Assembly: GCA_032718475.1 (NCBI GenBank)
Contig: JAUCBJ010000819.1
Span: 1 to 56,242, forward strand
DNA from: Nemertoderma westbladi
Lineage: Eukaryota; Animalia; Xenacoelomorpha
Length of the DNA: 56,242 nucleotides
Reading direction: 5' to 3'
Under the pieces are notes generated by a model. The model worked only from the letters and a program-made list of their open reading frames with translations, was not told the origin of the DNA and did not search any database. A program made the position numbers and the translations under genes. This document shows positions 3,916 to 46,421 of this stretch, piece by piece. Each line of letters begins with the position of its first letter. Positions within the stretch are counted from its first letter, which is position 1.

Positions 3916-5298
3916 GGTTTACCGGTCACTACGGTATTTTGCAACCTTATTGCCTACTGCAATAAGATCGTTAACTGTTACTGTTCGCGCTTTTGAAGAC
4001 CTTTAGCAGTTTAACCTGCCAAAATTTATATGTCTTTTAGTTAATTAAAACAACTTTAGCATACGACAATATTTTATGCTAATACACAAAACATTACCCG
4101 AAGTCAGCCCATGCGCGATCATTCACCCGATGGATCTACACCCGGGAGGCTGAATTCGGCTGCTTAAATTTTATTATTGCAGTGTAAGGTTGCAGTGTAA
4201 ACTTACTGTATTATTCGATAGATCGTTAATAATTAATCTCTGACAGATATTATTGGCTTTCGGGAAATATTAACAGTTCCTTTAGGACGTGGCGCTCTAT
4301 CTATTTAAACAGAACTAGGACTTATACTAAACGCAACGATACCGCTTATGATTAAAGTATAAGGCGCATTCTTTAGGAAATGCTTTGTTACCAATCACAA
4401 TCATGCACACTATTCTGCCGACCGTCAGTAAATTTGATCACACATAAAGAGAGCAGCAATTGACTCATGTAGGGTCTGCTAAATAACATTAGATTCAATA
4501 CACACCACATTAATATAAATCGCAATTGTTATGTATAGCCTGTCTCTCTAACCTGTAGTGTATCAAGAAAATTGGGAAATTTGGGTGATTTATCCGTATT
4601 ATCCAAAGAGCAATATTTCCATCAACAAATAGATACAATTAATAACTGACGGTAAATAACAGTACAAACAATATGATTAATAGTGAGTTAAGTAAGTTAA
4701 GATTGATTAGTTAAGTTAAGGTAACAGTTATACTTTCGATAATTTAAGCAGTTTTACTGGAGTTATTCCCAAAAGCCGGTGTTATGGCGAAAAATGGGAA
4801 CATAACAACAGAATCATATAAAATCATATGACTAGAATGACTATACGAGTATACCAACTACCCTTATTCCCCGAAGCTCCCGTCCAACACAGAGGATGAG
4901 CAGTGAGATAGGAAATTCAGTTCAGTAGCTCTGGGATAGGTCGAAATCAACGCCCACTCAAATTCTATTGGCCGATACGGACAGCAAGGCTAAGGCAACC
5001 TCTCTAAGCTAGTTGGCCGATTAAACTGAGCCCAGATATCTCCGTACAGCACATCAGCCAATAAGCTGGTAGCTTGCACTATTTTAGTTATAAATCCCTT
5101 TGAGAGTATTCTAGCGACTGGGGGGGAACTGGCCAGCAAAGGCAAACGTATCAGTTATCCCACAAAAGCTTTTACACCCATACCAGCGGGTGCCGAGGGC
5201 GACCAACCGCCAAGGAAGTTAAGGGAGCTAGAGGGATGGAGAGCTACGGGCGATAGCCAAGGCGGGAAGGGACATAGTGGATCCATCGGGATAAGGGG

Positions 5299-6162
5299 TT
5301 GGAGACACTGCCAGAAGAGGAGGACGACGACGACGAGTTCGGAGAGATGCCGCCCATCGAGAGGATAGGCCACTCGGACACGGACTGGGTTGGCGGGAGG
5401 GTGGTGACGGCCAGTGGGGCGAGAGCCTTCTGGGACAAACCCGGCAAGCGGACCTGGGTGCACGAGGAGCCGGCGATGGATTTCGCGGGGAGCACTATCA
5501 GGTTGGGCGAGCAACCGGGGACGGCACCACGGGTAGTATTCGGGGAGACGATGCCCGAGAGGGGCGGAGAGATCGACGTAGACAGAGACACCAACGTGGA
5601 GAAGTTCGCCTACCAGCGACTCCACAGACCGCGGAGATCGCTTGGGACGAAAGACGACGTGGGACGGGAGACATTGGTACTCGGCTGCGACTACTGTGGG
5701 AGACAGACCCATCGGGAAAGGAGCTGCTTATACCGGTTCCAGAAGGGAACCTTTTGTCTCTACTGCCGAGAGCCAAGCCACAGGATGGGGGCGTGTCCAC
5801 GGTTGCATAACCGATGTCCAAAGTGCCACTTTCGGGGACACTATGGACGCGAGTGCGACTGGATGAACGACGAGGAGAAGTTCACAAGATTCGAGGAGTG
5901 GGCCGACGTCGGGGCCATGACGCGCCAGCGCATGAAGGCCCAGGAGTTCAAGTGGGGTTTCTTCCTTATCAATCAGGAGACTCACATGGAAATCATAAAG
6001 CGGAGGCTACCGTTTACCTACCAAGAGGTAGCAACGGCGGCGTCGTACGCCGGAGTGATGAACACGCAGCGATATTTGGACAGGTGGACGCCAGAGAACC
6101 GAAGGGAGTTTAGGGATTTCTTGGCGGAGCACGTACCACAAGCAATGAAGATGATCCTATAG
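5299..6162 (+). CDS. Accessory triple CCHC zinc-knuckle protein of LTR element A (start uncertain; first in-frame ATG 5347)
   Basis: Three CX2CX4HX4C knuckles (CDYCGRQTHRERSC, CLYCREPSHRMGAC, CPKCHFRGHYGREC), then FEEWAD...R...WGFF. Clearly similar to 41126-42184. Lies upstream of a PPT and LTR. Confidence 0.8.
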   Translation: METLPEEEDDDDEFGEMPPIERIGHSDTDWVGGRVVTASGARAFWDKPGKRTWVHEEPAMDFAGSTIRLGEQPGTAPRVVFGETMPERGGEIDVDRDTNVEKFAYQRLHRPRRSLGTKDDVGRETLVLGCDYCGRQTHRERSCLYRFQKGTFCLYCREPSHRMGACPRLHNRCPKCHFRGHYGRECDWMNDEEKFTRFEEWADVGAMTRQRMKAQEFKWGFFLINQETHMEIIKRRLPFTYQEVATAASYAGVMNTQRYLDRWTPENRREFRDFLAEHVPQAMKMIL

Positions 6163-6384
6163 GACGCCACCAGAGGGAGACAACCGGGCCACTCTGAGGG
6201 GCCACCGGCGAAGCGATATCGGGCACTAATAACACCAGCGCCCAAGGAGCCAACGACCGGGATCAGCAGGGAGGTGGCGGCGAAGGTCCGAAAGCAGAAA
6301 GCGGATCCCAGAGGAACGGTGGTAACCAAGAAACGACCCAGGGAAGAGGACGCCAGGGGGAACTATCCCCAGAGGAACAGATAG
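6163..6384 (+). CDS. In-frame 73-aa basic extension after the TAG of the zinc-knuckle ORF (possible readthrough domain)
   Basis: DATRGRQPGHSEGPPAKRYR...VTKKRPREED...RNR*; no ATG of its own; NLS-like PPAKR and KKRPR. Confidence 0.4.
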   Translation, partial: DATRGRQPGHSEGPPAKRYRALITPAPKEPTTGISREVAAKVRKQKADPRGTVVTKKRPREEDARGNYPQRNR

Positions 6385-16003: not shown

Positions 16004-16369
16004 TATTTTGTCGCGAAATTAAAAGCAATGGTAAAATAACAGCTGGTGTTCATGATGAAATATGGCTTAATATGTTATACACAGTCATAGTAAAACGTAA
16101 AGCTACCGCCTAACTTAGCAGGAGTACCTATATTACATATTCACATAGGATTCACTGGGAAGAGATATTCCGCTTGACGACGGGGTAATACCTATAGAAG
16201 GAAACTAAATTTGTTATTTGGCTCTATTCGTTGTTATTTATCTGGTTGTGCATCATGGGCATTTTTTATAAATATTCGGTAATCGCATCTTATATCTTGT
16301 AAACGTGCTTGATAATGAAATTATATAGTTCATATTATATTTTTGTTAGTGGTAGCAAAGTTTAATTTT

Positions 16370-18340: not shown

Positions 18341-18538
18341 AATGCAATTGTGTTCTTTGTTATTTGAGATGACTTATTTTGCTAAATTTAAGATTTAAAA
18401 GTTTTTTAAATTTTATATTATTTTTTAAAAGTTTTTATAGAGAATTATCGATAACACGGGAAAGCCCGGGCCTATTGCAGAATTTTGAGTAAAAGCCAAT
18501 GTTTTCTACAGAGGTATTATTATTATTAATTACGTTAA

Positions 18539-24750: not shown

Positions 24751-24876
24751 CTAAAATATATATATTATATAAATATATTCATTGTCTATGGTATCTGATT
24801 ATGCTCAGTAGGTTATACTTCAATATCAATATTGCGAGTAACATCAATAGTATTACATCATCGCACAGTATTATTA

Positions 24877-25723: not shown

Positions 25724-26061
25724 TAACTATATAGCATACTGATAAAATTCAAGTTCATATATATCCAATTTAAAAACAAAATCATACAAAATTTATTAAA
25801 AAAATAAGAAATGAATAGACAGCGTATAAGTAAAGTAGTACTGTAGTGAACGCTGCCACACGCACACTGAACAACAAAAATGTAGCTGGTATAGTATAAA
25901 CTGGTGGATTGCAGGTAATTGTACTGTATAAGTCAAAGAAATATAAAGGGTACCGGTACTGTAGTAATAAACAACAGATAATACGACTCCTACATATAGA
26001 AGTAAAATCCACGATTGGTCAAAGTCTGAGAAAGTTTATATTACAGTATAATAACACGTAC

Positions 26062-28774: not shown

Positions 28775-29021
28775 CGATGGATCATCAAATGGATCAATCT
28801 TGCCCAACTCAATGTGACGGATGATGGAGCTCAGATTTTAGTTGTATTAATTTCATGTTCCTAAACTACTTACTAAACACAATGTAGGATGACTTGGTGA
28901 GATGATCAGCGATAGTTAACTGTATGTAATGCCAGAAACAAAACAATCCTAAATAAAAAAAAACACTTTCTAAGTTCGGTTTTTTCTCACCACGAAGGAT
29001 TGGATACCATATATACTTAAG

Positions 29022-30918
29022 TATAGAATTATATTCCCTAAATGCCGTGGATTTTCAAAATTTTATTTTATTCGGATTAACTTTGTAAAGATTGCTTTGA
29101 GTTCTCATTCGTATTGGTTCTATCATTTGTACATCTATCGGTCAAGTGGTTCAGTAGCTCAGTCGGTAGAGCGTTGGAAATTATATGTGTAGTAGGTATT
29201 GAGTTCGAATCCTAGTAAGTGCGAATTATTTTTTGTACAGAATTTCAACTCATTTAAATTAACCGCTACAAATTAATTGCATTTATCTGTACCAATGAGA
29301 CTGTAGTTATTTGATTGTAACCAATGTCGTGCAAGTTATATATTAGCTGGACCAATAGCTATCTTTAAAACCTTGTTAGAACCCATAGAACAATCGAGAA
29401 TTTTCTCGATTGATTGCGGCACAAATTTGCTATATAAAGGTGCGATTTGTTCATTAGTTATTCCATTTTCTTATTCTCTCAGTTATTCAGTTATCTGATA
29501 TTTGTTTATTCTGTCATTAGTTTTCAGATTACATTGTATTATAATTATATCTTCTGTAATAAAGTCAGAATTATCGCTAATCTGCTTTTCCTATCTGTTT
29601 TACTATGATTCACCACGGTGAACCCAACTAAGGGACAGGATGGCAGGCTAGAGATCGGGCCGCAGCAATGAACGGGAACATCACCGGAATGTAGACGAGA
29701 GACAACCCGCAATACCATCTAGAGTTATTCGCCCATCGCCTGAAAGGTTAGAGGGCGTTCGATCCTTGCTACCTAAGTGTAAGACCAAAAGATCAAAAGG
29801 TAGACGTAGTGACACGCTGTAAGCCTAAAATTACATCTAAGGGACTGTACTGTCTTGATTCAGGAAAAACCGCAGTAGACCTTCATATTCCTACGGGAGG
29901 GAGAGAGAGCAGAGATACTAGTACGCAGATAGGACGTAGGCACACCGGTACGAAGCATACAAATTGGTTAGGGTGCAGCAAACTGTACGCTTAACTCTTG
30001 CTAAGTACAGGTGCGTCTGTGACTATTTGCCGTACAACGGTGTCCATTACATCAGAACTTGTAGGCTAGGAGGGTTATTGTGTTTTCACCTGAATTAGGA
30101 TTGTACCGTTCAGGCGGTAGGGCAGTTTACGTACTAGGCGCAAATAAATTGAGGCTATTAGGGATACTAACATCTACCGTGTCCCCGCCAACGCCCTGAT
30201 AGGAAGTTACCTGGACTACCTGGGTGACTAAAATTCTAGATAGGACGCCAGGATAGCTATTAGTAACTGTACGCCTACAGTAGTAAACTAACACATCTCT
30301 TCTTAGTATCAGGGACCTGGTACCTAAAATTGCCGAATTCTGGGCGTAGTATTAACCTTATGCCTGAATTTGAGTCCTGGAAATACGCAAGAGGGGAAGG
30401 AACCTTATCATTCGTGAGTATTGGACCTACAAGTTACAAAATTAGAATATTCGTAAAATGCACACCGTACCCAGTAATTATATATGTGAAGGAGCAAAAC
30501 TGCTTTTGACCGTTCAGAATTAACACACGCGCGTTAGAAATTATTTACACCTCAAAATATATAAAATTAACTTTCGTCCTTACTGCACTTTGCTCGCTAG
30601 TTAGACATCTCCAAATCTCTGCCTGTACCTAGCTAGCGTCCCTTTGCCCAACCATATAAATCACACCGCGGCAAAGTATACGAGCCCCTTAGTCCGTCAG
30701 CGAGTCAGCCTGATTTTAGGATTCGCTGCGCGGGATTTTGTTTTATCGAAGTTTGTCTGCTCGTAGACTGTTTTCTGCCTCACCGGTTATAAGAGATCGA
30801 TACTGCAATATATTCGCTTACTTAGAGTTTACTGTTTTGGTGAGAAGGTCGGATTTATGATTTGATTCACAAACTTTACAGTAGGATATTGCAGGTATTG
30901 TTGCTGTCTCTTCGAATA
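29022..30918 (+). repeat. 5' LTR of element C (1897 bp)
   Basis: tatagaatt...ttcgaata; TATA at 29431; AATAAA at 29558 and 30143. Confidence 0.95.
29148..29234 (+). ncRNA. tRNA-like Pol III cassette inside the LTR (second copy 43378-43464)
   Basis: Box A tagctcagtcggtagagc with intact D-stem, box B gagttcgaatcc, then a T6 run; acceptor and anticodon stems do not pair. Confidence 0.55.
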
Positions 30919-30929
30919 GTAGGAATATG
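30919..30929 (+). promoter_or_regulatory. Candidate non-tRNA primer-binding site
   Basis: gtaggaatatg directly follows the 5' LTR and is the exact reverse complement of catattcctac at 29884-29894; no TGG-type PBS present. Confidence 0.55.
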
Positions 30930-31728
30930 TTTTACTGAACTACGGTTCGGTAGGACTAAAGTTATTTGAAAATTTTGTATTTTGAGGTAAAAATTTATAT
31001 TTGATTAGCTGAGTGCTAATTTTTTGAAATAAAATTTGATTTGAACCGCGTGTAAAATATTTTTGGAATTGAATACCGGTGTTTAAAAAGGGTTTAAATA
31101 CCATATTGTACCGGTACAAAATTTTCGTAAAAGTAAAACCTAACTCTTTTGTTTTTCAGGATTCAGAACTCATTTCTAGACTGTAACGGGAGCAAGACCG
31201 TGTTTAGCAAGTTTGGGAGATAGATAACTCAACAACTTTGGTTGGGAAAATCGCGTTTCGTCCGCAACGTTAAAAACGGAAAGGTTCACGTCCGGTTTGT
31301 ATCTGGGAATCTGTTTTTCTGGAGAATTATTGGAGTGGGTGAGTTCGAAAAGTTGCATAAATAAGTTAGGCATTACCGTATTAGTTAAAATTATTGTGGG
31401 TTCCACTGTCTCAAGTATTTATGCATTCCGTATGATTTCTTTGTTCATTGCTGAATTAGTCCGTATTATTGTATTTAATTTACCTTTTGATAACGCATAT
31501 CGTTATCCGATTTATTTGTTATAAAATTGGCCGCTAGGCTAATTTTATTATATACTTATTCCGTGACATTTATTTGCTGTAAAATTGGCCGTTTAGGCTA
31601 ATTTTATCCATCTGCTATAAAATCGGCCGGTAGGCTAATTTTATATGACTGTAATTAGTACCGTTTAGATATAAATACGGTAAACTCGATACTTTGACAC
31701 TCACTCCACTTGACTTACAACTACCGAA

Positions 31729-34700
31729 ATGAGTGACAAACAAGACTATACGAAGAATACACAAACCGACTATGACTCGTGTGACGCGGATAAGTCAGCA
31801 GCGGAGGAACAACAGGGGAAGACTCGCGAGCCTACCGAACCTACACCGTGTGCGTCACCAGTACATCCAACGGGAGTACCGGATGCCGTAGTACGAGGCG
31901 ACGGCAGGACCGAGGACTTTCTAACTGTTCCGCAACCTAGATACAGGGAAACGGACATGGTAAGTTCAGCAGGAAGTCAGGAGAGCGTGGTTAGAAGCGT
32001 CGGTGGATACATGGCGCATATTACCAGGAGTATTGGAGAAGGCCAACGCATATTAGACGGGTTGACCGCTCCTATGTCTCGATTCGAGTTCTACACCCTC
32101 CAGGTTAGAGTACAGAGTAAAGTATATAAGTCCGTAGATAATCTAGTTGGCCTACAAGATCTAGCTAGACAGAGACAGGACATGGATACTCAACTTAGAA
32201 TCCTCGGGAAACTAATGATCGCTAGAGAGAAACTGATTCAGTTTAAGTCGACGATTAGACGGATACAACAGGAACAAGCGGACCAGTTGTTAGGTGAGTC
32301 AGTTTCGGACGAATTATTACAGCCCGAGGAAGAACAGGAACTGTACCGACTGGATGGACAATTGAAACATCTGACGGACCACTTACGTATGTGCGGCGAA
32401 GACGTCGGCGATTTGGAAACCGTGCCGGAATATACGAGGGAAACTTCACCCGTACGAATCGAATCGGCACCGGGAATGCTGGACCAATCGTTAGTGAGTA
32501 TTCGCAGCGAAATTGGCGAGATAAGTATCGTGACGTCAGAAATTTCCAGACAGCAACAACAACATGATAGACAACAACGGGAAGCGGAGGAACAAGCTCA
32601 ATTGTTGACGGCACAAGCGGCGGTAGAAGAAGAAAAACTACGTGTTGCGAATGTTGCAAGAATCTCTCATCTGCAAGAACAAGCCGAGTTGGAAGCGGCC
32701 GAGATGGAAAGGTTGGAGTTGGACATCGCCCAACAAGCAGCAGCGGCCGAGTTAGCGCGACAGAGGTTAGTATCAGAAGCGAGAGCCGAGATGAAAAAAC
32801 GGCAAATAAAGGCTCAGTCAGCTATACGACAAGCAGAGTTCGAGGCGCAACAACAACAAACGGAACAACGCGAGAAAGAAGTTAAACTTCATTTCGAACT
32901 CGGGAAGAAGGCGAGAGAATTAGCCAACGCGAAGGAAGATCTGGATCTACAAGCCCGCGATCGATCGATGAGATCTCGAGATGGACATGACTTGGACCAG
33001 ATAGAGGTAAGACATCGCCAAATTCAGGAACGGAAGAAGGAAGGAAGCGTAGGAGCACCCGGACGGGAACGACAATTAGTAAAGGACTTGTGTCAACGAT
33101 TCCCACAGGTAACTCATATGTTTGCACCGGTTACGACTAAGGAACCTGTTTCGATTGCGGGTAGTAGTAACATTTCTCCTATCCATGGTGCGACGGAACA
33201 CAGGTTTGTTATTCCGGACGAGTTTACACCGCCAAGAGCAACGTCGTCGCCTATTCCAAAAGTCAAGGTAAGTAACCCACCGATTACAGATCGTAGTAGT
33301 TTATTAGTCGAACCTGCACTACTGACAACTAAACAGGTGAGTCCACCGTCGACACCTAAACCTGTTACACACTACGCTTATCCAATGACGTTTCGACCCA
33401 CAAGGCCAGTTGTTTCAAATGCTGTCATTCGCCCACCGATCAACCAATTTGCATCGCAATCTACGACTTCGAGGAAGACTTGTGAGCCTACCGAACAACG
33501 GAGAACAGTGGAGACGCGACCATTCAACCAATTTACATCGCAATCTACGACTTCGAGGAAGACTTGTGAGCCTACCGAACAACGGAGATCAGTGGACGAT
33601 GTTCCGAAACGAAACGTGAGAATTCGTACGACGCAACGAACGCGAGCACGTCAACCACCATATCCAGATGATAGTAGTACTTCGAGCGAATCGGATTACC
33701 CGAAACGCGAGGTATTTAGAACAGGGGCGGCCGATGAATATAAACGCGAGCGTTCAGACAACTCCTTTGCAGACAATCCTCCACAGAATACACCAACACA
33801 GAAGGCGTTACAACCAACGGACGCAATTAGTACACAACAGTTCGCCGACATCCTGCGACCAGTTGTTAATAAGTTGGCTCAGATCGAGGAACGTCTGGAG
33901 GAAGTTCAAACCGACAGTTCGAGAAATTCCGAATTCGAACACAATAGACACCCGAAGGAACCACAAAGACCGGTACCTTCAAACCCCACATCGTATCAGG
34001 GAAAAGCGCCAAGAAGGGATATCAACCAGCGTACCAACCAAGGACGCGAAACTCTGAACGTTGCCGAGGAGATAGCGAAATTCGCAGCCAGACAAGGATT
34101 GCCGGTACAACAACCACCGAAGTTTTCCGGTAGCTCAAAACACTGGCATACTTTCGTAGACTATATCGAATCCCAGATCGCCGTGTGCGCCTTTACATCA
34201 CGGGAGAAGTTCAATTACCTGCTCCAAACGTTGTCAGGAGAACCTAAACGTTTGGCGGAGACTTTCGTCGGTGTACCGGACGCTTTCGAACTAGCGTACG
34301 ATCGTTTAACTTCGATATACGGAGGTACAGTTAGTATGGCCAGGTCAGTAATAGAGGAACTCTGTAAGGGAGGGGCTATCACTAAACCCGTCGACTTATT
34401 AAAACTAGCTGACGAGATAAAAAACGCTATCACTACTTTAAAATCCATTGGACAACTTGATTACGGGAATACCCCTACAGTCCTATTAAAGATCATAGGA
34501 CGACTCCACCATCGACTTCGTCGGGAGTGGAGAAAGGTCGAATACCAGCGAGAAGAGCGGGGAGGATTCTTAAAATTAGAAGATGTGTACCTTTTAATAT
34601 CCAGGGAGGCGGTAGTAGAAACTCGATCTAACTACACCGACCAGCACATCGTGGCAGAAGGGATCACATTGCCATCCTCCAACCGACAAAAACCCCAGAC

Positions 34701-37700
34701 AACATCCACTAAGACGGCCACTTACACCACACCGACGGAATCACGACAATTCTCGGACGGTAGTAGGGTATCTGCGCCCATTGGGACAAAACAGACGAGA
34801 CAACAACTCGGTACCGACTTCAGCGGCTGCCAATACTGCGAGCATCTAGGCAAGCGGTATATCGGTCACAAGTTTCGAGGTTGTCGACAATTTCGCGAGT
34901 TGAACTCGGAAGAACGACGGCTGCAAATACGGCCATTGGACTCTTGTTGGCGGTGTACGCGACACGGACACGTCCGTAAAGATTGCCCAAATACCGACAC
35001 TTGTCCATCCTGTGGACGCAACCACGACGGTCTGCTCCACACAGACAGCCACACGCCGACGAAACGCTTCGCCAGGGAACACCCGGAAGCAGCAGCGAGA
35101 TGTGATGCGGCTTACCGAAAACGAGAATCGAAAACGACTCCAACCTTCGTGACCCATATTGAGGATTGCTTCTCAGAACAATCCGGATCGTCGGACGAAG
35201 AATCAGAAGACGACGACGAATATTCCAATGGAGACGAACAACCGTCGATTGCGCTTCTGACTACTGACCAACTGAAGGGATTCAGTGTAATTCCGATTAA
35301 GGTTACTGGCACAAAGGGGAGCAAAAGAATCTACGCGATTCTAGATTCAGCCTCATCTCATAGCTACGTGGATGAAAAGATAGCTGACGTAGTGACGGAT
35401 CTTAAACAAGGTAAGCACGTCAGTTATACCGTAAGTAGTATGCACGGACAGCGTGCAATACCAGTGACACGAGTCAAGTTAAACTTAGACTCTCTTCTTC
35501 CAAAATCGCAGCACAGCGAGAGGGAGAGGTCTTTGTTACCTTTTAGAGATCTAACCTTTGCGGCCACGAAGGACTTTAGTAACCTACTAGGTCCAGTGCC
35601 GGAACAATCTCTAGAGGACCGTAAGTATTTCAGACACCTTGGTGTACCCGAATGTCCTGTCAATTATAGATCGGTAGCAATGCTGATCGGGACGGACCAA
35701 TTCAACCTACATCAGGTGTGGGAAACCAGACCATCGGCAGTTGTAGCGGGAAACGCATACGCCTGCAGAACGCCGATAGGGTGGTATACTCGAGCGCCTG
35801 TGCGCACACTAGACGTAAGTGACGAGGAAGACGATGTACAGAGTACATGTAGTTTATTAACTACAAATTCAATTCATTCCTTCTCACACGACGTGAACCA
35901 TACTACACTACAGTCGACAAAACATAACAGACGTGTAACTAGTATGATAAGTCACAAGGAGCAGCTAATCCACAAGGTGAGTTTAGAACTTGGGGAGAAG
36001 ACGAGTCAGCTAGAGATTCCATCGACGACAGATGATAGGCTTGCGAGTCTACCTACCCCAACGACATCAACAATGCCCGTCGATATCGATGATGACGCGT
36101 TGAGAAATCATCAAATGGAACAAGCCGCATTGGACAAAGAATTAACGGAGAAGACTATCAGGTGGTTAGAACAAGATACAGCTGAACCTGGTAGCTACGA
36201 ACCTTGTATGTCGGAACAGGAGAAACAATCTCTGAAGATCATGGAAGATACTATCCACCAGACGAAAGACGGACATTATGAGGTAGGGATGTTATGGCGT
36301 AGCCAAAGTCCTAAACTTATAAACAACTATCCACTAGCCTTGAGACGTCTACACTCAATACGGCAACGTCTATTAAAGGACGAGAAAGCCCATCTGCAGT
36401 ACAATACTCAGATGGAGACGTATTTGACTAAGGGATATGCTATCCGAATGACTAACCCGGAGATAGTGACTGACCAAACATATTACTTGCCACATCACTA
36501 TGTGAGACACCCCGATAAACCAGACAAAGTACGCGTAGTCAATGACTGTGCGGCTCTGTTTGAGGGAATGTCCCTCAATAGTGAGTTGATGGATGGACCA
36601 AACATGAATAATTATCTTATGGGGGTGATTATGCGCTTCCGTCAGCGTCAAGTAGCCTTTACATGTGACGTTGAAGCGATGTTTCACCAAGTGAGAGCGT
36701 TAGAGCGAGACAGAGACAGTTTGCGGTTCCTCTGGTACCCGGAAGGAGACTTAAGTCTACCACCAGCGACTTACCAAATGCAAGTTCGCGTTTTCGGTGC
36801 CAGAGACAGCCCAAATTGCACGATGTACGCCCTAAAGCAGGCCGCTAGAGATCAGAAACATCTATATGACCCAGAGATAATTAAAATCGTAGAGCGTGAC
36901 TTTTACGTTGACGACGGTTTACAGAGTTGCGACACAGTAGAACGTGCTACAACAGTAGCACATCAATTACGGGACTGCTTAGCGGGCGGAGGTTTTAACC
37001 TCACCAAATTCGCCTCAAACAGTGCCGAATTAGTAGACTCATTCGGGACGACTGAGCGTGGAGGTGGTGACATAGACCTAGAGTTCGAACCACTACCGAC
37101 GACCAAGGTGTTGGGGCTCTTTTGGGACCCAAACACGGACAACTTCCGAGTGAAGGTGAGACTGGACAGTCAAGAGAACACACTGACAAAGAGATCATGC
37201 TTGTCAAAGTTGAGCCGATTGTTCGATCCGTTAGGATTCATCAGTCCAGTAATACTGCAAGCTCGCATTTATATGCGCAGTATTTGGAAGGATGGACTAA
37301 CATGGGACGAGCCGATCTCATCAGACCAAGTGGACTTATGGAAGACCTGGGAGGCGGAATTATCTTCGCTAGAGGATTATTCCATACCCAGGGTTTACTT
37401 TCCATTACAAAGTACATTTCCTGACAACTTGGAATTACACTGTTTTTCTGACGCCAGTGACAACGGTTTTGGTGTGGTAGCGTACTTGCGCAGACAAGTA
37501 GACTCAGACGAGTTCGATGTTTCGCTCATTACTTCTAAGGCTAAGACCATGCCTACTAAGTATATGACGACACCACGAGCTGAGCTACAAGCCGCAACCC
37601 TGTCAACCACCATCGTGAACCTCATACAGACAGAACTACAGTCGAGTTTACAGATATTTTATTGGACTGACGCGACGTTGGTTTTATTTTACATAAACAA

Positions 37701-40308
37701 CGACACGCTTGAATTCAAGACATTCGTAGCTAACCGTCGCGCAGAAATTCTAGATCGTTCAATAAAAGAGGATTGGCGACATTGTCCCGGACCACAAAAC
37801 CTAGCTGATATTGCGTCGCGAGGAATGATGCCTGAGGAATTCTGTAAACCGGAGAACAAAGAATTTTGGCAACACGGACCCCAGTTCTTGCAGAAATCGA
37901 CACAAGATTGGCCTCCGTTATACGACAACAAGTCTAACACCATCCCTAAGGACGCCGAAATCAAGAAACCAAAAAAGGGGAAGACAAAGAAAAAGACAAC
38001 GGCGGTCAAACTCAAGAAAAAACCGAAGGCGAAATGGAAAGATATAACTTCAAAGGTCAAGAGAGGAAGACTTGCGAGCCTTTCTACACCAGACATATCG
38101 CCAGACGGTCAACCAGACACGTTACTAGACGGTCAACCAGACGTTTTGCCAGACATATCACAAAATGTTCTACCAGACACTAGTGACATACTGACAAATA
38201 GTAAAGCCGCAGTTTCCCTATTGGAGCGGCCTTCTATCGACAAACAACCAGATACGTTACCAGACGTATCGCCAGACACATTACTAGACAGTCGACTAGA
38301 CATTTTGTCAGAAACATCACAAAATGTTCTACCGGACATTAGTAATGTATTGACAAACAGTAAAGCCGCAGTTTCCCTATTGGAGCGGCCTTGTATTGAA
38401 AAACTACCAATTTTGACACACTTGAGCAACCATAAGCACGGTGAAACCTCATGTATTACAGATGTGGGTAGTACCTACGCTAATGTAAATACAGGTGTTA
38501 CTTTGCGCTCAAGAGACATACCAAACTTGCAACCTATGGTGAGACCTGGGATTAATGTCGGCAGAAAATTAAGTTTACCGAAACCTGCTGACCCCATAGA
38601 GTTCAAACCACCATTAACGATCGACTTACAAAGTACTGACGATCAAGGTAAGAAGACGAAGAAGGACAAATTACTTGTAGACCCGGACGGATCAACAGTC
38701 AACAAGGGAATACTTACCGGCGGACCCGTGGGCCCTTCTAGTAATTCAAAACCTTCCAAAATCTCCATTGACTTACCTGATGACGTCACAAATACTTACG
38801 TCGACCGTATTGTAAACCTAACAGATTCTTGGTCAAACGCTTGCCGAAAATTAGCGTGGATTGTACGTTTTGTACAATACGTTAAAGGCAAACGTGACTT
38901 TACACGTCGACTTACATTGGCTGAGATTGACAGGTGTGAGATTAAATTAATTCGCCATTACCAACTGCGATATTTCGCGCGCGAATTCACATCTATAAAT
39001 CAAGGTCAACCAATCAAGTCGTCACCAATACTGAGTTGGAGTCCGATTATTTATAATGGCTTAATTTGTCATAAATCACGGCTTCAAAACATTGACTTTA
39101 ACACAAACTTTAGGTACCCAATAATAATACCGCAACACCACGAACTACAACATGCAATGATACTGGACGCACATCTACATCTGAAACACGCTGGAAGACA
39201 CCACTGTCTTTCCTACTTACGTACTAGATTTGTATTAATTAGACCCAGTAAAGCATTAAGTTCAGTGACACGTACGTGTATTATTTGTAAAAAGGTACAT
39301 TCTAGAATAGGTACCCAAGAAATGAGTGAACTACCACAAGCACGACTTCAAGCATTCAGACCACCTTTTACAGAGACTGGAATTGATTGCTTTGGTCCCA
39401 TACATACGAAACGTGGACGCATACTAGTAAAACGCTGGGGACTGATTTTCACATGTATGTCCAGTAGGGCAGTTCATATTGAACGTGTGATGGATCTTTC
39501 CACCAACGCGTTTATACTAGCACTGCGGCGATTTATCGCCAGACGCGGACTAGTGAAATGCTTGTACTCAGACCAAGGGACAAACTTTGTTGGTGCTCGG
39601 AATGAGATTGCTAGAGCCTTTAAGAAATTAGATCATGATCAAATCTCGAACGAACTACAACCTCACAAGATTGTTTGGAAGTTTAATCCTCCAGATAGTC
39701 CTTGGAGAGGCGGAGTCTGGGAGAGATTGATTAGATCTATAAAGACGGCAATGGCAAAGGTCATTCCAGTAAACCACATACTGACAGACGACCAACTGAC
39801 AACACTGTTTGTTGAAATCGAGGCAATACTAAATACTAGACCAATAGTATTAGTACCCGATGACAAACAATCTCAGTTCGCTTTGACACCGGCACACCTG
39901 CTAATGCAGGCACCGACGACTTTGATGCCTATTTCTATTCCAATAGAAAGCGACAGCTACGGTAGAAAAGCGTGGAAAATCACGCAACTACTGGCTAACA
40001 AATTCTGGGAAATATGGCAAAACCATTATTTGCCCTCTATTTCTGCCAGAACAACTTGGTACAATAACACCCGCGCATTAAAGCCGGGAGATCACGTGCT
40101 GTTAGCGGAAGTGAATCTAAAAAGACGCTTCTGGATAACAGGTGTCATTTTAGCCACACATCCATCTATGGATGGAGTGACAAGAACTGTGACAGTACGG
40201 ACAATTGACGGTCGTACAGTTGACAGACCGACTCAACGTCTCGTACTTCTTGAAGAGACTCGTAACGAGTCTGGAGACTACAAATCTCCACCTAATACTA
40301 GTAAATAA
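31729..40308 (+). CDS. gag-pol: Bel/Pao Gag-Pol polyprotein, 2859 aa
   Basis: Gag core PPKFSG..W..F / EKFNYLL..L.GEP; three Cys/His knuckles; protease AILDSAS; RT YLPHH..KVRVV and FYVDD; RNase H LHCFSDAS, YWTD, NLADIASRG; integrase HHCC, GIDCFGP, SDQGTNF, GGVWERLI. Confidence 0.98.
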   Translation: MSDKQDYTKNTQTDYDSCDADKSAAEEQQGKTREPTEPTPCASPVHPTGVPDAVVRGDGRTEDFLTVPQPRYRETDMVSSAGSQESVVRSVGGYMAHITRSIGEGQRILDGLTAPMSRFEFYTLQVRVQSKVYKSVDNLVGLQDLARQRQDMDTQLRILGKLMIAREKLIQFKSTIRRIQQEQADQLLGESVSDELLQPEEEQELYRLDGQLKHLTDHLRMCGEDVGDLETVPEYTRETSPVRIESAPGMLDQSLVSIRSEIGEISIVTSEISRQQQQHDRQQREAEEQAQLLTAQAAVEEEKLRVANVARISHLQEQAELEAAEMERLELDIAQQAAAAELARQRLVSEARAEMKKRQIKAQSAIRQAEFEAQQQQTEQREKEVKLHFELGKKARELANAKEDLDLQARDRSMRSRDGHDLDQIEVRHRQIQERKKEGSVGAPGRERQLVKDLCQRFPQVTHMFAPVTTKEPVSIAGSSNISPIHGATEHRFVIPDEFTPPRATSSPIPKVKVSNPPITDRSSLLVEPALLTTKQVSPPSTPKPVTHYAYPMTFRPTRPVVSNAVIRPPINQFASQSTTSRKTCEPTEQRRTVETRPFNQFTSQSTTSRKTCEPTEQRRSVDDVPKRNVRIRTTQRTRARQPPYPDDSSTSSESDYPKREVFRTGAADEYKRERSDNSFADNPPQNTPTQKALQPTDAISTQQFADILRPVVNKLAQIEERLEEVQTDSSRNSEFEHNRHPKEPQRPVPSNPTSYQGKAPRRDINQRTNQGRETLNVAEEIAKFAARQGLPVQQPPKFSGSSKHWHTFVDYIESQIAVCAFTSREKFNYLLQTLSGEPKRLAETFVGVPDAFELAYDRLTSIYGGTVSMARSVIEELCKGGAITKPVDLLKLADEIKNAITTLKSIGQLDYGNTPTVLLKIIGRLHHRLRREWRKVEYQREERGGFLKLEDVYLLISREAVVETRSNYTDQHIVAEGITLPSSNRQKPQTTSTKTATYTTPTESRQFSDGSRVSAPIGTKQTRQQLGTDFSGCQYCEHLGKRYIGHKFRGCRQFRELNSEERRLQIRPLDSCWRCTRHGHVRKDCPNTDTCPSCGRNHDGLLHTDSHTPTKRFAREHPEAAARCDAAYRKRESKTTPTFVTHIEDCFSEQSGSSDEESEDDDEYSNGDEQPSIALLTTDQLKGFSVIPIKVTGTKGSKRIYAILDSASSHSYVDEKIADVVTDLKQGKHVSYTVSSMHGQRAIPVTRVKLNLDSLLPKSQHSERERSLLPFRDLTFAATKDFSNLLGPVPEQSLEDRKYFRHLGVPECPVNYRSVAMLIGTDQFNLHQVWETRPSAVVAGNAYACRTPIGWYTRAPVRTLDVSDEEDDVQSTCSLLTTNSIHSFSHDVNHTTLQSTKHNRRVTSMISHKEQLIHKVSLELGEKTSQLEIPSTTDDRLASLPTPTTSTMPVDIDDDALRNHQMEQAALDKELTEKTIRWLEQDTAEPGSYEPCMSEQEKQSLKIMEDTIHQTKDGHYEVGMLWRSQSPKLINNYPLALRRLHSIRQRLLKDEKAHLQYNTQMETYLTKGYAIRMTNPEIVTDQTYYLPHHYVRHPDKPDKVRVVNDCAALFEGMSLNSELMDGPNMNNYLMGVIMRFRQRQVAFTCDVEAMFHQVRALERDRDSLRFLWYPEGDLSLPPATYQMQVRVFGARDSPNCTMYALKQAARDQKHLYDPEIIKIVERDFYVDDGLQSCDTVERATTVAHQLRDCLAGGGFNLTKFASNSAELVDSFGTTERGGGDIDLEFEPLPTTKVLGLFWDPNTDNFRVKVRLDSQENTLTKRSCLSKLSRLFDPLGFISPVILQARIYMRSIWKDGLTWDEPISSDQVDLWKTWEAELSSLEDYSIPRVYFPLQSTFPDNLELHCFSDASDNGFGVVAYLRRQVDSDEFDVSLITSKAKTMPTKYMTTPRAELQAATLSTTIVNLIQTELQSSLQIFYWTDATLVLFYINNDTLEFKTFVANRRAEILDRSIKEDWRHCPGPQNLADIASRGMMPEEFCKPENKEFWQHGPQFLQKSTQDWPPLYDNKSNTIPKDAEIKKPKKGKTKKKTTAVKLKKKPKAKWKDITSKVKRGRLASLSTPDISPDGQPDTLLDGQPDVLPDISQNVLPDTSDILTNSKAAVSLLERPSIDKQPDTLPDVSPDTLLDSRLDILSETSQNVLPDISNVLTNSKAAVSLLERPCIEKLPILTHLSNHKHGETSCITDVGSTYANVNTGVTLRSRDIPNLQPMVRPGINVGRKLSLPKPADPIEFKPPLTIDLQSTDDQGKKTKKDKLLVDPDGSTVNKGILTGGPVGPSSNSKPSKISIDLPDDVTNTYVDRIVNLTDSWSNACRKLAWIVRFVQYVKGKRDFTRRLTLAEIDRCEIKLIRHYQLRYFAREFTSINQGQPIKSSPILSWSPIIYNGLICHKSRLQNIDFNTNFRYPIIIPQHHELQHAMILDAHLHLKHAGRHHCLSYLRTRFVLIRPSKALSSVTRTCIICKKVHSRIGTQEMSELPQARLQAFRPPFTETGIDCFGPIHTKRGRILVKRWGLIFTCMSSRAVHIERVMDLSTNAFILALRRFIARRGLVKCLYSDQGTNFVGARNEIARAFKKLDHDQISNELQPHKIVWKFNPPDSPWRGGVWERLIRSIKTAMAKVIPVNHILTDDQLTTLFVEIEAILNTRPIVLVPDDKQSQFALTPAHLLMQAPTTLMPISIPIESDSYGRKAWKITQLLANKFWEIWQNHYLPSISARTTWYNNTRALKPGDHVLLAEVNLKRRFWITGVILATHPSMDGVTRTVTVRTIDGRTVDRPTQRLVLLEETRNESGDYKSPPNTSK

Positions 40309-40974
40309 TTAGGAGTTTACAAATAGATTTCCACGTACCTGTACACTGTAGTAAGGACAGCGGTAGAATTCCATTGTCTTTATATGTGAACATTGAGGGT
40401 AGTACCCTTATGTGTCACATAGGAGCGGGATTTGTAGGTATAAGAAATGGAATTCTACTTGGAACTCACAATATTGAGACATTTTCGAAATTTTAGACAA
40501 TCCATTTGGATTTGAAAAATTTTTAAAAAATTTTCTCCAGTGAATAGATTTCAGGGTACAGTCGGGTGGAACTTAAAATTAGAGAAACAAGAGAGGAAGA
40601 CTTGCGAGCCTTTCTTAAAATTTTAATTAAATTTTACACGGTCTTGTTTCAATAAGTTACATCAAATAAATAGACTCCCCTATATTTATTACTAATTCTT
40701 GACTGCTTATTTTCTGATAATAGTTTGGGATCAAAAAGTGAGTATTTTAGACTCACAGCCAGTTTAGCCCAAATTCGTTTTTTATTTCGGCAAAAAATTT
40801 TAGATAAGAAGCAGCGTGTCATTAAAGAAACCTTAGATCTTAGGCTATGGGTAGGAGGTTAGAGCGTTGTCGAAGCCCAAAAGGCAGACGAAACTCTCAC
40901 GTCTCCTCACAACTAACCACAAACTCTGTTGTATTCCCTCTAGTAGTAATGATTATGTAACTACACCTCTAATT

Positions 40975-41157
40975 ATGGAGAAAGGGATACAAGGAGAGCC
41001 GAGATGGGGATATGATATTCAAGAGGAAGCGGCAGCTTCATTCGAAAGATTTGGAGCTAAAGATTACACTATATTTGGAATAAAGGAATTATCAGAAAGT
41101 ACAGCGAAACTCGCAAACACTAAATATGACACGACGTATCGTGGAGATTACGGATGA
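40975..41157 (+). CDS. Small 60-aa ORF overlapping the start of the zinc-knuckle ORF
   Basis: ATG at 40975 (MEKGIQGEPRWGYDIQEE...); overlaps 41126 by 32 nt in another frame; no recognisable motif. Confidence 0.3.
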   Translation: MEKGIQGEPRWGYDIQEEAAASFERFGAKDYTIFGIKELSESTAKLANTKYDTTYRGDYG

Positions 41158-42184
41158 ATCACGGCAGACGCGCGCGCCTATCGGTCACCTTGGTGATGAT
41201 TTCGAAGTAACTACTACGATCGCCGACGATCCTTTAGAGGAACTTCTTGAGATAGAAAGGAACCTCCCGAAGAAATCTCAGACGGAGATTCGACAACTTG
41301 AAGCAACAGATGCTATAGTTTGTATACAACCTTCAGAAACCTACCAACCCATAGACCCAGATGATTACGATTATAGTATGGGAGGAAGCGCTCGACCGAT
41401 TGGGGATCTTATATACGAACGAGTATGGTACCCTGCCAATACGATGTGTAGTAAATGTGGCGTCGCTGGACATCATATGGCAAAGTGCAGTGGAAAGCAC
41501 ATTACTACGACTCAGCTAATCTGTGGATGGTGTGGGGATCAAGGGTCTCATACCTTTTATACTTGCTGGAGATTTATGGCTCAATGTACTTACTGCAATA
41601 TAAAAGGACATCGAGCATCTGAATGCCAACTAAGAGACATACCTTATGAACACGAATCTGTAAAACTCGTGAGGAAATTATTTGACGAGTGGGAAGATTT
41701 AGCCGACGAACATGTATCAGCACAAAGAAGACGGTTTCCGATGAGAGCGCATCTCGGATTTTGGGCGGTAAATCCTCAAACGATGATGTCGGAAGGATAT
41801 ATCTCCGCTATGCCCCAATATGACGAACTTATCGAGGTTGTCGATATTTTGCCCCACGACAGCGGATTCCGAGTGGTGCGCGAGTATCTGTTACAAATTC
41901 ACCCGGATAACAAAAACACATGGAATTTTCAGAAAGTCGTTAATCGGATTACGTATGGTGAATTCGATCGTTTCCGAACTGAAAAGCGGAACAAGGGAGC
42001 TTGGTTAACCGTCGCATGGGCGTACCGAGCCGCGTTTTACCACAAACGTATACGAGCGAGCGTATTCGAGGAAGAGGAGGTCCTAGAGGCGACAAATATA
42101 CCAGCCACTCCGGTTGCGCCGTCTGCACGTCACCCTCGGGAGGACGGACAGGGTAGGATCATACGGGTCCAGAAAGTGGGCTAA
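41126..42184 (+). CDS. Accessory triple CCHC zinc-knuckle protein of element C, 352 aa
   Basis: Acidic N-terminus; CSKCGVAGHHMAKC, CGWCGDQGSHTFYTC, CTYCNIKGHRASEC; then FDEWEDLAD...RR...LGFW. No obvious signal peptide or TM segment. Confidence 0.85.
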   Translation: MTRRIVEITDESRQTRAPIGHLGDDFEVTTTIADDPLEELLEIERNLPKKSQTEIRQLEATDAIVCIQPSETYQPIDPDDYDYSMGGSARPIGDLIYERVWYPANTMCSKCGVAGHHMAKCSGKHITTTQLICGWCGDQGSHTFYTCWRFMAQCTYCNIKGHRASECQLRDIPYEHESVKLVRKLFDEWEDLADEHVSAQRRRFPMRAHLGFWAVNPQTMMSEGYISAMPQYDELIEVVDILPHDSGFRVVREYLLQIHPDNKNTWNFQKVVNRITYGEFDRFRTEKRNKGAWLTVAWAYRAAFYHKRIRASVFEEEEVLEATNIPATPVAPSARHPREDGQGRIIRVQKVG

Positions 42185-42577
42185 CAATTGAAGAAAATTA
42201 TTAATGTAGAAGAACGCAAGGGAGTTGAGCCGACTATTCGAGTTACTCGGGATACGGTATCGCTTCCAAGAGAACCAGTAGGAGGGTCGGGACATACACC
42301 AGCTGATCAACAGGGGGCGCAAGCTACTCTTGGGTCTGCGTCGTCCGCTTCTCGCGCGTTCCCAGACGTTCTACCAACTGTAGTGACAACTGATCGGTCA
42401 CGAGGAATCGGTCGAGGTTTTGGGATGCCAAATAGACGAATTTGCGAGGAAATAGTCGCACCGTCTCTCAACGTCCAAACGAAACCAGTGACTCGCCCCA
42501 CGAGTCCCATATCGCGAGCAAAGTCACCTGTGCGCAGTTTTCGAGGACGCGGCAGGGCTCGATCAACTAAGCGATAA
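42185..42577 (+). CDS. In-frame 130-aa Arg-rich extension behind TAA-CAA-TTG (possible readthrough domain)
   Basis: Same frame as 41126; ends RSFRGRGRARSTKR*. Confidence 0.5.
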   Translation, partial: QLKKIINVEERKGVEPTIRVTRDTVSLPREPVGGSGHTPADQQGAQATLGSASSASRAFPDVLPTVVTTDRSRGIGRGFGMPNRRICEEIVAPSLNVQTKPVTRPTSPISRAKSPVRSFRGRGRARSTKR

Positions 42578-42679
42578 AAGGGAGGGCAAGGGTGGACGGA
42601 GGACTCGTGAGCCTTTCTTGTGAATTTGTGATTTATTTGAATTATATGTTTTATATTTAGAAAGTTTTGTATTCTGGAA

Positions 42680-42945
42680 AAGACTCATATTTAGTAAAAC
42701 TTATATTTAGTAAAACTTATATTTTATATTTGTGCTTATTCCGAACTTATGCAATTTATATTATTCCGAACTTATGAAATTTAGAAATAAGAACTTATAT
42801 TTTAGTAAAACTTATATTTAGTAAGACTTATATTTGTAAGAATTTATATTTTATATTTGTGATTATTCCGAACTTATGCAATTTATATTATTCCGAACTT
42901 ATGCAATTTATATTGTTCCGAATATTATGCAACTTATATCTTATA
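42680..42945. repeat. AT-rich tandem repeats in the 3' UTR of element C
   Basis: ttatatttagtaaaac and ttattccgaacttatgcaatttata units. Confidence 0.8.
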
Positions 42946-43251
42946 AGCAGTATTTGTATTTACAGTGAAACAGAAATATTTGTAATTGTTTGAATTTATG
43001 CAATATTGAGATGCAATAGATTTATATTGGTGAATTTAATTTAGATTTATATTGTACTTACTTAGTAAAGCCTTAAATACGTAAAGTTTGAATTTGTAAT
43101 TATTTTGTATCGAATCATTACGTAAAAAGGAAGTATTGTTTGAAATTTAATTGTAAATATGTAAGTACGCCCTAAGTATTCTATAGTTTGATTGATTATT
43201 GGTGAAAACCGTATATTTTATGCACGATAATATCCTGTTTTCATGGAGCGG

Positions 43252-45156
43252 TATAGAATTATATTCCCTAAATGCCGTGGATTTTCAAAATTTTATTTTA
43301 TTCGGATTAACTTTGTAAAGATTGCTTTGAGTTCTCATTCGTATTGGTTCTATCATTTGTACATCTATCGGTCAAGTGGTTCAGTAGCTCAGTCGGTAGA
43401 GCGTTGGAAATTATATGTGTAGTAGGTATTGAGTTCGAATCCTAGTAAGTGCGAATTATTTTTTGTACAGAATTTCAACTCATTTAAATTAACCGCTACA
43501 AATTAATTGCATTTATCTGTACCAATGAGACTGTAGTTATTTGATTGTAACCAATGTCGTGCAAGTTATATATTAGCTGGACCAATAGCTATCTTTAAAA
43601 CCTTGTTAGAACCCATAGAACAATCGAGAATTTTCTCGATTGATTGCGGCACAAATTTGCTATATAAAGGTGCGATTTGTTCATTAGTTATTCCATTTTC
43701 TTATTCTCTCAGTTATTCAGTTATTCAGTTATCTGATATTTGTTTATTCTGTCATTAGTTTTCAGATTACATTGTATTATAATTATATCTTCTGTAATAA
43801 AGTCAGAATTATCGCTAATCTGCTTTTCCTATCTGTTTTACTATGATTCACCACGGTGAACCCAACTAAGGGACAGGATGGCAGGCTAGAGATCGGGCCG
43901 CAGCAATGAACGGGAACATCACCGGAATGTAGACGAGAGACAACCCGCAATACCATCTAGAGTTATTCGCCCATCGCCTGAAAGGTTAGACAGCGTTCGA
44001 TCCTTGCTACCTAAGTGTAAGACCAAAAGATCAAAAGGTAGACGTAGTGACACGCTGTAAGCCTAAAATTACATCTAAGGGACTGTACTGTCTTGATTCA
44101 GGAAAAACCGCAGTAGACCTTCATATTCCTACGGGAGGGAGAGAGAGCAGAGATACTAGTACGCAGATAGGACGTAGGCACACCGGTACGAAGCATACAA
44201 ATTGGTTAGGGTGCAGCAAACTGTACGCTTAACTCTTGCTAAGTACAGGTGCGTCTGTGACTATTTGCCGTACAACGGTGTCCAGTGCATTAGAACTTGT
44301 AGGCTAGGGGGGTTGCTGTGTTTTCACCTGAATTAGGATTGTACCGTTCAGGCGGTAGGGCAGTTTACGTACTAGGCGCAAATAAATTGAGGCTATTAGG
44401 GATACTAACATCTACCGTGTCCCCGCCAACGCCCTGATAGGAAGTTACCTGGACTACCTGGGTGACTAAAATTCTAGATAGGACGCCAGGATAGCTATTA
44501 GTAACTGTACGCCTACAGTAGTAAACTAACACATCTCTTCTTAGTATCAGGGACCTGGTACCTAAAATTGCCGAATTCTGGGCGTAGTATTAACCTTATG
44601 CCTGAATTTGAGTCCTGGAAATACGCAAGAGGGGAAGGAACCCTATCATTCGTGAGTATTGGACCTACAAGTTACAAAATTAGAATATTCGTAAAATGCA
44701 CACCGTACCCAGTAATTATATATGTGAAGGAGCAAAACTGCTTTTGACCGTTCAGAATTAACACACGCGCGTTAGAAATTATTTACACCTCAAAATATAT
44801 AAAATTAACTTTCGTCCTTACTGCACTTTGCTCGCTAGTTAGACATCTCCAAATCTCTGCCTGTACCTAGCTAGCGTCTCTTCGCCCAACCATATAAATC
44901 ACACCGCGGCAAAGTATACGAGCCCCTTAGTCCGTCAGCGAGTCAGCCTGATTTTAGGATTCGCTGCGCGGGATTTTGTTTTATCGAAGTTTGTCTGCTC
45001 GTAGACTGTTTTCTGCCTCACCGGTTATAAGAGATCGATACTGCAATATATTCGCTTACTTAGAGTTTACTGTTTTGGTGAGAAGGTCGGATTTATGATT
45101 TGATTCACAAACTTTACAGTAGGATATTGCAGGTATTGTTGCTGTCTCTTCGAATA
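43252..45156 (+). repeat. 3' LTR of element C (1905 bp)
   Basis: Matches the 5' LTR apart from an extra ttattcag and about 11 substitutions (counted by eye); preceded by a short purine-rich ggagcgg. Confidence 0.95.
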
Positions 45157-45314
45157 TTAAGTTTTAAGCAAAAGCTTGTGAAACGGCTCCCCCCAGCATT
45201 AAGTTGTGGGATTTCCAGGCTAGGTTTTTAGTATTAATTTAAGTAATGTTGTTTAGTCACGCACACAGTAGGCATAGATACAGTAGTAAAAACAATAAAT
45301 AATTTCTTACTTAC

Positions 45315-46091: not shown

Positions 46092-46421
46092 CTATAAAAT
46101 ATGAATAATGAAGAAATAGTTTAACATCATTATTTATTATTTAAAATAATATTTATGTTCCGTTAGGAATACACTAAAAGGACTGAAATTAATGAGAATG
46201 CATCAAACTCTTAAAATGCTATTACTGCTATTACTAAATTGCTATTATTAAATGAGAAAAACAAAACAGGACAAAATGTTGAAGATAAAATGTTTATGGT
46301 AGAATAACTAAAATTAAATTATAGAACAACTCTAAGACGTTGTAGTCAACCTCCGTCACGGAGCTGGTAGAGTCAGATGTCTAAACATCTCGAACTACAT
46401 GGGTAGAAGACTTCTCACCAG

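Follow-up and report, generated by a model that had tools for sequence, protein, structure and literature searches.

A triple zinc-knuckle gene behind gag-pol in a Bel/Pao retrotransposon of Nemertoderma westbladi, its spliced RNA joints and a possible part in RNA export

A Bel/Pao retrotransposon of Nemertoderma westbladi, here called element C, carries between its integrase and its 3' LTR an additional gene for a protein with three CCHC zinc knuckles, and two splice joints lead from its 5' LTR to a point just upstream of this gene. The element lies in contig JAUCBJ010000819.1 (assembly GCA_032718475.1), of which positions 1 to 56,242, the whole stretch of DNA that was analysed, are referred to as the window. 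The reading that we favour, by analogy with Rev and with CERV of Caenorhabditis elegans and with a probability of roughly 40%, is that this third, non-env gene is expressed from a doubly spliced RNA and that its product would bind the element's own unspliced RNA and bring about its export.

Element C is a Bel/Pao (Belpaoviridae) retrotransposon that occupies positions 29022-45156 of the plus strand (16.1 kb), and its LTR pair encloses Gag-Pol and the knuckle gene. The 5' LTR (29022..30918, +; 1897 nt, TATA box at 29431, AATAAA at 29558) and the 3' LTR (43252..45156, +) are 99% identical, a short purine tract (43242-43251, +) stands directly before the latter, and a 5-bp target-site duplication, TTAAG, flanks the element (29017..29021 and 45157-45161). 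The LTR ends, which were set by this duplication and by flank contigs, read TAT...ATA instead of TG...CA. A single Gag-Pol frame (31729..40308, +; 2859 codons) comprises DUF1759, knuckles, Peptidase_A17, an integrase zinc finger and DUF5641, with Pfam E values of 1.5e-42 for Peptidase_A17, 3.7e-20 for DUF5641 and 3.2e-11 for DUF1759, and its domain order, Gag with DUF1759 and knuckles followed by Pol as PR-RT-RH-IN, is of the Pao type. Two other Bel/Pao elements, L001 and L021, were recovered in searches with integrase and reverse transcriptase and show 33-36% identity to C. Between its RNase H and integrase, C has some 330 additional codons, in part repeated, that both of them lack (37850-38900). 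The long stretch linking these two domains also contains an AATAAA inside pol (37761-38000), towards which contigs of run X4 pile up and which is a possible internal poly(A) site. By eye, a stretch of U3 (29148-29225 and 43378-43455) has a tRNA-like appearance with A-box and B-box, which was not picked up by ARAGORN or Rfam; tRNA-like LTRs are described for the non-autonomous Helenus elements in the accessible text of PMC10886601.

Contigs of four runs (X1, X3, X4 and X5) were compared with the window at a likeness setting of 85%. Diverged contigs in their thousands (21205 in X1, 9005 in X3) covered all 30 bins of C including the knuckle gene, which therefore belongs to the C family and is no stray insertion. 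Contigs of X1 and X3 match the left flank and leave the window exactly after 29021, from where they continue unlike the LTR of C, one of them for about 1370 nt; this fits alleles without the C insertion. Since the LTRs are 99% identical and the insertion is absent from these alleles, the C family is young and multi-copy, and C is an unusual, recently active Bel/Pao family. Third codon places account for 23 of the 29 differences listed in gag-pol, these being the best-supported few of about 800, and both gag-pol and 41126-42577 are free of the 12 best-supported indels (of 64), which are confined to non-coding parts.

The triple-knuckle gene of C (41126..42184, +; 352 codons) starts 817 nt past the gag-pol stop, between integrase and 3' LTR. 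Its product has an acidic N-terminal part (net -12), three CCHC knuckles at residues 108-167 (41447-41626), the second of the form CX2CX5HX4C, and a predicted helical part. The first-pass annotation had described an intact ORF of 352 amino acids behind integrase; an open frame of 352 codons does lie inside the LTR pair, but the word intact is likely wrong, as the stop at 42182-42184 is absent from every covering contig in X1, X3 and X4 (three of the four runs, X5 giving no cover). Behind this stop, the only place within the gene at which a difference was listed, the frame stays open for 130 more codons as a basic Arg/Lys/Pro-rich stretch (42185..42577, +; net +14). Because other copies do not share the stop and the frame is open beyond it, the C-family protein likely runs into this tail, which quite probably is a nuclear-targeting one. 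The earlier proposal that the extra frame constitutes a genuine accessory gene of C is supported.

Several other origins of the C gene and of its counterpart in element A, described below, were considered and rejected. The best 19-residue hydropathy value is 0.54 in the C protein and 0.68 in its tail, against 0.36 and -0.06 in A, so that the earlier statement that no signal peptide or transmembrane helix is apparent holds; the view that the gene is not env is supported, as there is neither a hydrophobic segment nor a Pfam match. An origin from a LINE ORF1 was rejected, as only untranslated sequence, a purine tract and an LTR follow both frames and these are carried family-wide. A copy of the element's own Gag knuckles was dismissed, the C knuckle protein giving no match to the Gag of C, and an enzymatic ORF3 of the rotifer type (DEDDy, GDSL) was dismissed likewise, the non-knuckle parts having no Pfam match at E up to 5. 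Structure models of the two knuckle proteins reached pLDDT values of 34 and 36, the helical part thus being weakly modelled, and a fold search with these models, which are too poor for the purpose, returned nothing at E 0.001.

Two joints together would give a spliced RNA of C. Intron 1 (29747..31159, +; 1413 nt, GT...AG) begins inside the 5' LTR, crosses the LTR end and reaches into the leader; it is followed by a small exon of 179 nt without ATG (31160..31338, +) and by intron 2 (31339..40943, +; 9605 nt), which takes out all of gag-pol. Joint 29746/31160 and joint 31338/40944 are both of the GT..AG type and were each found in one X4 contig, with 25 and 29 letters, respectively, on the short side, and neither was found in X1, X3 or X5. 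Intron 2 has a full donor, GTGAGT, and a strong acceptor, polypyrimidine-TAG, and this acceptor had been singled out from the sequence before the run contigs were compared; the joint falls 182 nt upstream of the start codon of the knuckle gene. Among the 13 further joints shown for C (15 shown of 66), not one is of the GT..AG type. The search for a spliced RNA suggested in the first-pass annotation thus yielded two joints at consensus sites, with one contig each in a single run. X4 carries the label DNA by guess, its contigs bear no strand or level, and no contig shown spans both joints. Its depth rises towards the AATAAA sites (37761 and LTR) and single-copy flanks are without cover, a pattern that looks like RNA but is given no weight in the argument; 3' bias alone can account for the higher depth over the knuckle gene. 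The spliced leader would contain nine upstream ATGs, one of which opens a frame of 60 codons (40975..41157, +; no Pfam match) that overlaps the start of the knuckle gene, and the start context of the latter is weak. Very probably, both joints belong to one RNA that is translated into the C knuckle protein.

A second frame with three knuckles is found in element A (5278..6162, +; knuckles at 5686-5856, residues 130-186), and its N-terminal part is likewise acidic (net -11), so that both the acidic N-termini and the three CCHC knuckles reported earlier for the two proteins are borne out. The homologue in A had been placed at 5299-6162, just upstream of the polypurine tract and LTR. A frame matching C was indeed found at 5278-6162, on the plus strand and before a purine tract (7087-7095, +) and a TG...CA LTR-like end (7096-7643, +), but there is no ATG at 5299, the first ATG in the open part being at 5347 and another in-frame ATG at 5236 lying above two stops, and the frame ends about 0.9 kb before the tract. 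A basic Arg/Lys/Pro-rich in-frame tail of 73 codons (6163..6384, +; net +11) follows behind an unshared stop, and about 0.7 kb of untranslated sequence separates frame and tail from the purine tract. The stops at 6160-6162 and 5254-5256 are not common to other copies in the run contigs, and the window copies of the knuckle gene in C and A both look cut short. The family proteins of A and C are likely composed of an acidic part, three knuckles, a helical part and a basic tail. A programmed frameshift shared by the 5' ends of the two genes was rejected, as the overlapping frames differ in phase, and stop read-through was dropped because other copies do not share the stops.

The partner LTR of A lies outside the window (none was found within 4740-5300), neither gag nor pol of A was found in the window, and A may be a Gypsy or a Bel/Pao element. 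An X1 flank contig begins at 7616, with single-copy flank beyond the LTR-like end. In the knuckle frame of A, 7 of the 13 listed differences fall at third places (P 0.10) and one at a second place, again among the best-supported few of about 800, a weaker bias than in the gag-pol of C (7/13 versus 23/29). No GT..AG joint was seen for region A among 15 shown of 55, and upstream exons may lie outside the window. CCAAT and TATA boxes stand above the frame (4960-5120, +) in a stretch that varies among copies, and the knuckle gene of A may be driven by a promoter of its own instead of depending on splicing. Joints 5656-6407 and 5850-6408 in X1 and X3 indicate that some A-family copies are without most of the knuckle frame. 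The 9-mer RGACGCCAS, a pattern picked after the fact, occurs at 6086, 6162, 6348 and 6921 in the tail region of A and once in each LTR of C, that is, in 6 copies where 0.8 are expected.

Element A abuts near 4750 on element B (1-4750, minus strand), a very high-copy repeat with a Gag-like coiled-coil frame of 575 codons. This frame (3-1727) runs along the minus strand as part of B, and 6 of its 7 listed differences fall at third places. In B, a TATA-like box stands near 4305 and an AATAAA near 4176; its LTR is apparently very long, like that of C, and its poly(A) signal would be masked by inverted repeats that are nested (4219-4174 with 3965-3761). The idea that the gene of A is an antisense gene of B was rejected, as the purine tract and LTR of A are on the plus strand. 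Elsewhere in the window there are LINE pieces of two families (RVT_1 and DUF6451) with copies 96% alike (22135-23831, 46355-49168, 54820-55772 and 7918-8531), and tandem arrays with units of 8 and 68 nt, a palindromic AT-rich repeat and an inverted repeat resembling a MITE (13031-16100, 16843-18434, 24874-25726 and 27813-28630).

Within the window, the knuckle proteins of A and C match each other best, with tblastn E values of 1e-5 and 5e-6, and neither has any other match there at E below 1; blastp gives 26% identity over 114 amino acids. Most of the score lies in the knuckles, where none of 20000 shuffles reached it; when the ligands were masked, 117 of 5000 did. The part behind the knuckles had been said to contain a shared segment, and similarity there is colinear and begins right behind knuckle 3 (53 of 10000 shuffles when anchored at this knuckle), but it is modest in a free local alignment (458/20000). 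No similarity was detected in the parts before the knuckles, be it by local (13287/20000) or by anchored alignment (9463/10000). The linker of six residues, xRxxxx, which had been offered as a shared mark, proved generic, since the Gag-type database match P0005 has it too. Comparisons within the window revealed no DNA or LTR similarity between A and C, as had been stated, and third-place GC differs much between the two genes (0.43 versus 0.75). Both proteins have the same order of acidic part, knuckles, predicted helical part and basic tail, and having this arrangement in common strengthens the argument for homology. With P values of 0.005-0.02 beyond the knuckles, together with shared layout and position, homology appears likely from the sequences, though on thin evidence, and the frame in A is probably a distant homologue of the knuckle gene of C.

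Within element C, a 16-nt word, GAAGACTYGYGAGCCT, is present in six sense-strand copies where 0.08 are expected, the pattern having been chosen after its copies were seen, and it constitutes the only dispersed 13-mer family of the element. Five copies reside inside intron 2: one in gag (31818..31833), two that form one local duplication in gag (33474 and 33558; 33474..33573), one in the linker between RNase H and integrase in another reading phase (38066..38081) and one in the spacer before the knuckle gene (40596..40611). The sixth, with one mismatch, lies just behind the basic tail (42599..42614), in the 3' part kept in the spliced RNA. The word thus occurs in both non-coding stretches around the knuckle gene and never in the LTRs, and its use of two reading phases and two non-coding places argues that it is kept at the nucleotide level. 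Its core, CTYGYGAG, is self-complementary by G-C or G-U pairs, and the six copies, all on one strand, vary only from C to T at places facing G and never from G to A. No significant hairpin was predicted for the word (z -1.3 to +1.3), and it was not found in those parts of A and B that lie in the window; in viral contigs, 19 single matches look like chance and match none of the proteins. Two joints of X3, from 43007 to 40595 and from 40623 to 43087, are consistent with one more copy of the word within the 3' untranslated region of other C-family members.

No primer site of the tRNA type (TGG-type) was found behind the 5' LTR of C. The first 11 nt behind this LTR are the exact complement of 29884-29894, a degree of complementarity that 11 of 12282 internal places equal, and the LTR stretch 29884..29917 (+) is predicted to pair with 30895-30929, which comprises the end of the LTR and the 11 nt that follow. 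The predicted duplex has -39.8 kcal/mol, as compared with -22 to -29 in 12 shuffles and -31.6 for the best internal control. The complement at 29884-29894 lies about 430 nt below the start given by the TATA box and inside intron 1. The modelled duplex could possibly serve in self-priming or be a structure closing intron 1. A similar LTR duplex was not found in B, whose LTR ends are not defined.

Relatives of the knuckle proteins were sought in several collections. A length-filtered protein search with P0001 and P0002 (near lengths) and with the alignment (shorter lengths) gave no relative among 1771, 277 and 161 candidates, an exact look-up of four proteins gave none, and a scan of 1.84 billion representatives gave three matches, all on knuckles of Gag-like or repeat proteins. 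PDB sequences gave nothing below E 0.5, a weak likeness being to retroviral NC; no match to CERV or Rev appeared in Pfam, PDB sequences or the protein collections; and locus searches with the knuckle protein gave none in metagenome or viral contigs. The collections searched are poor in animal repeat DNA, with Repbase and Dfam outside the scope, which makes these blanks weak for novelty. The two elements L001 and L021 are ordinary Bel/Pao elements with no knuckle frame behind pol; the downstream frame of L021 repeats the start of its own Gag region. L021 is of the animal type but comes from the metagenome-assembled genome of a bacterium, and it most likely represents host DNA that entered this bin. 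Literature searches gave no account of an ORF3 with knuckles or of a self-priming Bel/Pao element, and the sequence supplement of PMC3118150 (file 1) may hold examples that went unremarked; the knuckle gene of C is apparently undescribed.

The proposed function starts from the splicing pattern. The LTR promoter of C would make an RNA with two introns; full splicing would give the mRNA of the knuckle protein, and Gag-Pol and the genome would need intron 2 to be kept. With working splice sites in an RNA that must keep intron 2, a way past nuclear retention is needed, and the default spliced product could supply the protein that opens the nuclear exit for intron-containing RNA. The basic tail would carry this protein to the nucleus, where it would bind sites in intron-containing RNA, perhaps the repeated word, and thereby let this RNA out. 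CCHC knuckles bind single-stranded RNA, and from this known behaviour it can be expected with high confidence that those of C do so as well; that the repeated word is the target and export or protection of intron-containing RNA the outcome is a tentative proposal. It would be an unlikely extension to see in C a complex Bel/Pao lineage that combines a Rev-like circuit with the word, LTR self-priming and TA...TA ends and that shares its gene with an unrelated LTR lineage.

The same features admit other functions. The knuckle protein might be a second, free nucleocapsid-like RNA chaperone that acts in the cytoplasm or in the particle and anneals the words or the LTR duplex. Words with a self-complementary core could give RNA dimers or compaction, the knuckle spacing is like that of Gag nucleocapsids, the database matches are Gag-type knuckle arrays and, weakly, retroviral NC, and the stable predicted LTR duplex stands in place of a tRNA primer. 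However, the Gag of C keeps knuckles of its own, so that a second chaperone is not plainly needed, and a nuclear regulator would better explain the acidic N-terminus and a basic tail whose clusters resemble nuclear signals; we regard this alternative as somewhat unlikely. VANC proteins bind DNA motifs for VANDAL transposons and so counter host silencing, and an anti-silencing protein that binds either small RNAs and the factors associated with them or, as DNA, the repeated word (a CpG-bearing palindrome) would suit a family as young and multi-copy as C. Dispersed short motifs that come and go between copies would fit a DNA target. The restriction of the word to one strand and its variation from C to T only, small as the numbers are, suit RNA pairing more than DNA, and the protein has no nuclease or other known suppressor domain, which makes such a role improbable.

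Two further readings concern the gene itself rather than its function. A and C might have captured knuckles independently, from Gag, a LINE ORF1 or a host gene, with a likeness that is generic; the gene of C, though real, would then be specific to its family and might be a passenger or serve to hold copy number down. The concentration of the score in the knuckles, with little outside them or once the ligands are masked, the occurrence of the linker pattern in plain Gag, the different third-place GC and the open class of A would all agree with this. Against it stand the colinear match from knuckle 3 onwards, the same position, strand, charge layout and basic tail in both elements, and the lack of any match to the Gag of C or, in Pfam, to a host or LINE family, so that independent capture seems quite unlikely. 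Finally, the frame might be a decaying capture that is not expressed, the joints being assembly chimeras or cryptic splicing: each joint is in one contig with a short side of 25 or 29 letters at the 85% setting, many ATGs lie upstream, and both window copies are interrupted. Yet the two joints are independent, both are GT..AG at strong sites and together they frame the 179-nt exon, the 13 remaining joints shown include none of this type, and the frame occurs throughout the family and is left untouched by the listed indels; this reading is highly improbable. Expression of the knuckle protein as an export factor from a doubly spliced RNA remains the reading that we prefer.

Every LTR element with working splice sites must export unspliced RNA, and CERV is the one element-encoded solution outside retroviruses that was found in the literature. 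In the Gypsy element Cer1 of C. elegans, CERV is the product of a gene in the env position, is made from a spliced mRNA and is needed for export of genomic RNA, according to the available text of PMC10309623. As far as this text goes, the knuckle gene of C resembles it in being a non-env ORF between pol and 3' LTR on a spliced mRNA, with no homologue outside its lineage, a cysteine-rich candidate RNA-binding part and a candidate nuclear signal. In contrast, some exons of CERV also belong to gag, and the protein combines a C4-type loop with a G-protein-like domain, whereas C is a Bel/Pao element whose spliced RNA contains no gag and whose protein has three CCHC knuckles; export of genomic RNA, proven for CERV, is proposed for C by inference (PMC10309623). 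As C pairs a candidate protein with a candidate 16-nt target, the question of export becomes directly testable.

Among Bel/Pao elements, the ICTV profile names env-like third genes only, gives a tRNA primer with an 18-nt site and calls the replication of the group poorly understood (PMC8742986). C agrees with the env-bearing members Tas, roo and Atlas (PMC8742986 and the accessible part of PMC13524379) in its single Gag-Pol, domain order, place of the third gene and 5-bp duplication, but its third gene encodes a soluble protein with knuckles and not a glycoprotein, its ends are TA...TA and it has no primer site of the tRNA type, so that it departs from the primer site and ends described for Bel/Pao. 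Its sizes (16.1 kb, with LTRs of 1.9 kb) exceed the 4.2-10 kb and 0.2-1.2 kb stated in the ICTV profile (PMC8742986) and are within the maxima of 22.8 kb and 2.4 kb given in supplement 9 of an automated survey (PMC3118150). As in the self-priming elements Tf1 and Tj1, the first bases behind the 5' LTR complement an LTR stretch (11 nt exactly in C), although in those two elements the complementary stretch is the RNA's own 5' end and in C it lies well downstream of the TATA-box start, in intron 1 (PMC4600332, as far as its available text shows).

The bdelloid rotifer elements Juno and Vesta also have an extra, family-specific ORF behind pol; such ORF3s typically come from spliced messages, and the same type of ORF occurs there in unrelated retroelement lineages (PMC5408684). 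If the gene of A is homologous and A is not a Bel/Pao element, the knuckle gene has moved between superfamilies, as the rotifer ORF3s did. Those ORF3s encode DEDDy exonucleases, GDSL esterases and coiled-coil or membrane proteins in Gypsy-like elements, with no knuckle-only ORF3 among them in the available text of PMC5408684. Non-env third genes are thus already known, and what is apparently new in C is an accessory knuckle gene in a Bel/Pao element, with the first evidence for its spliced RNA and a candidate target.
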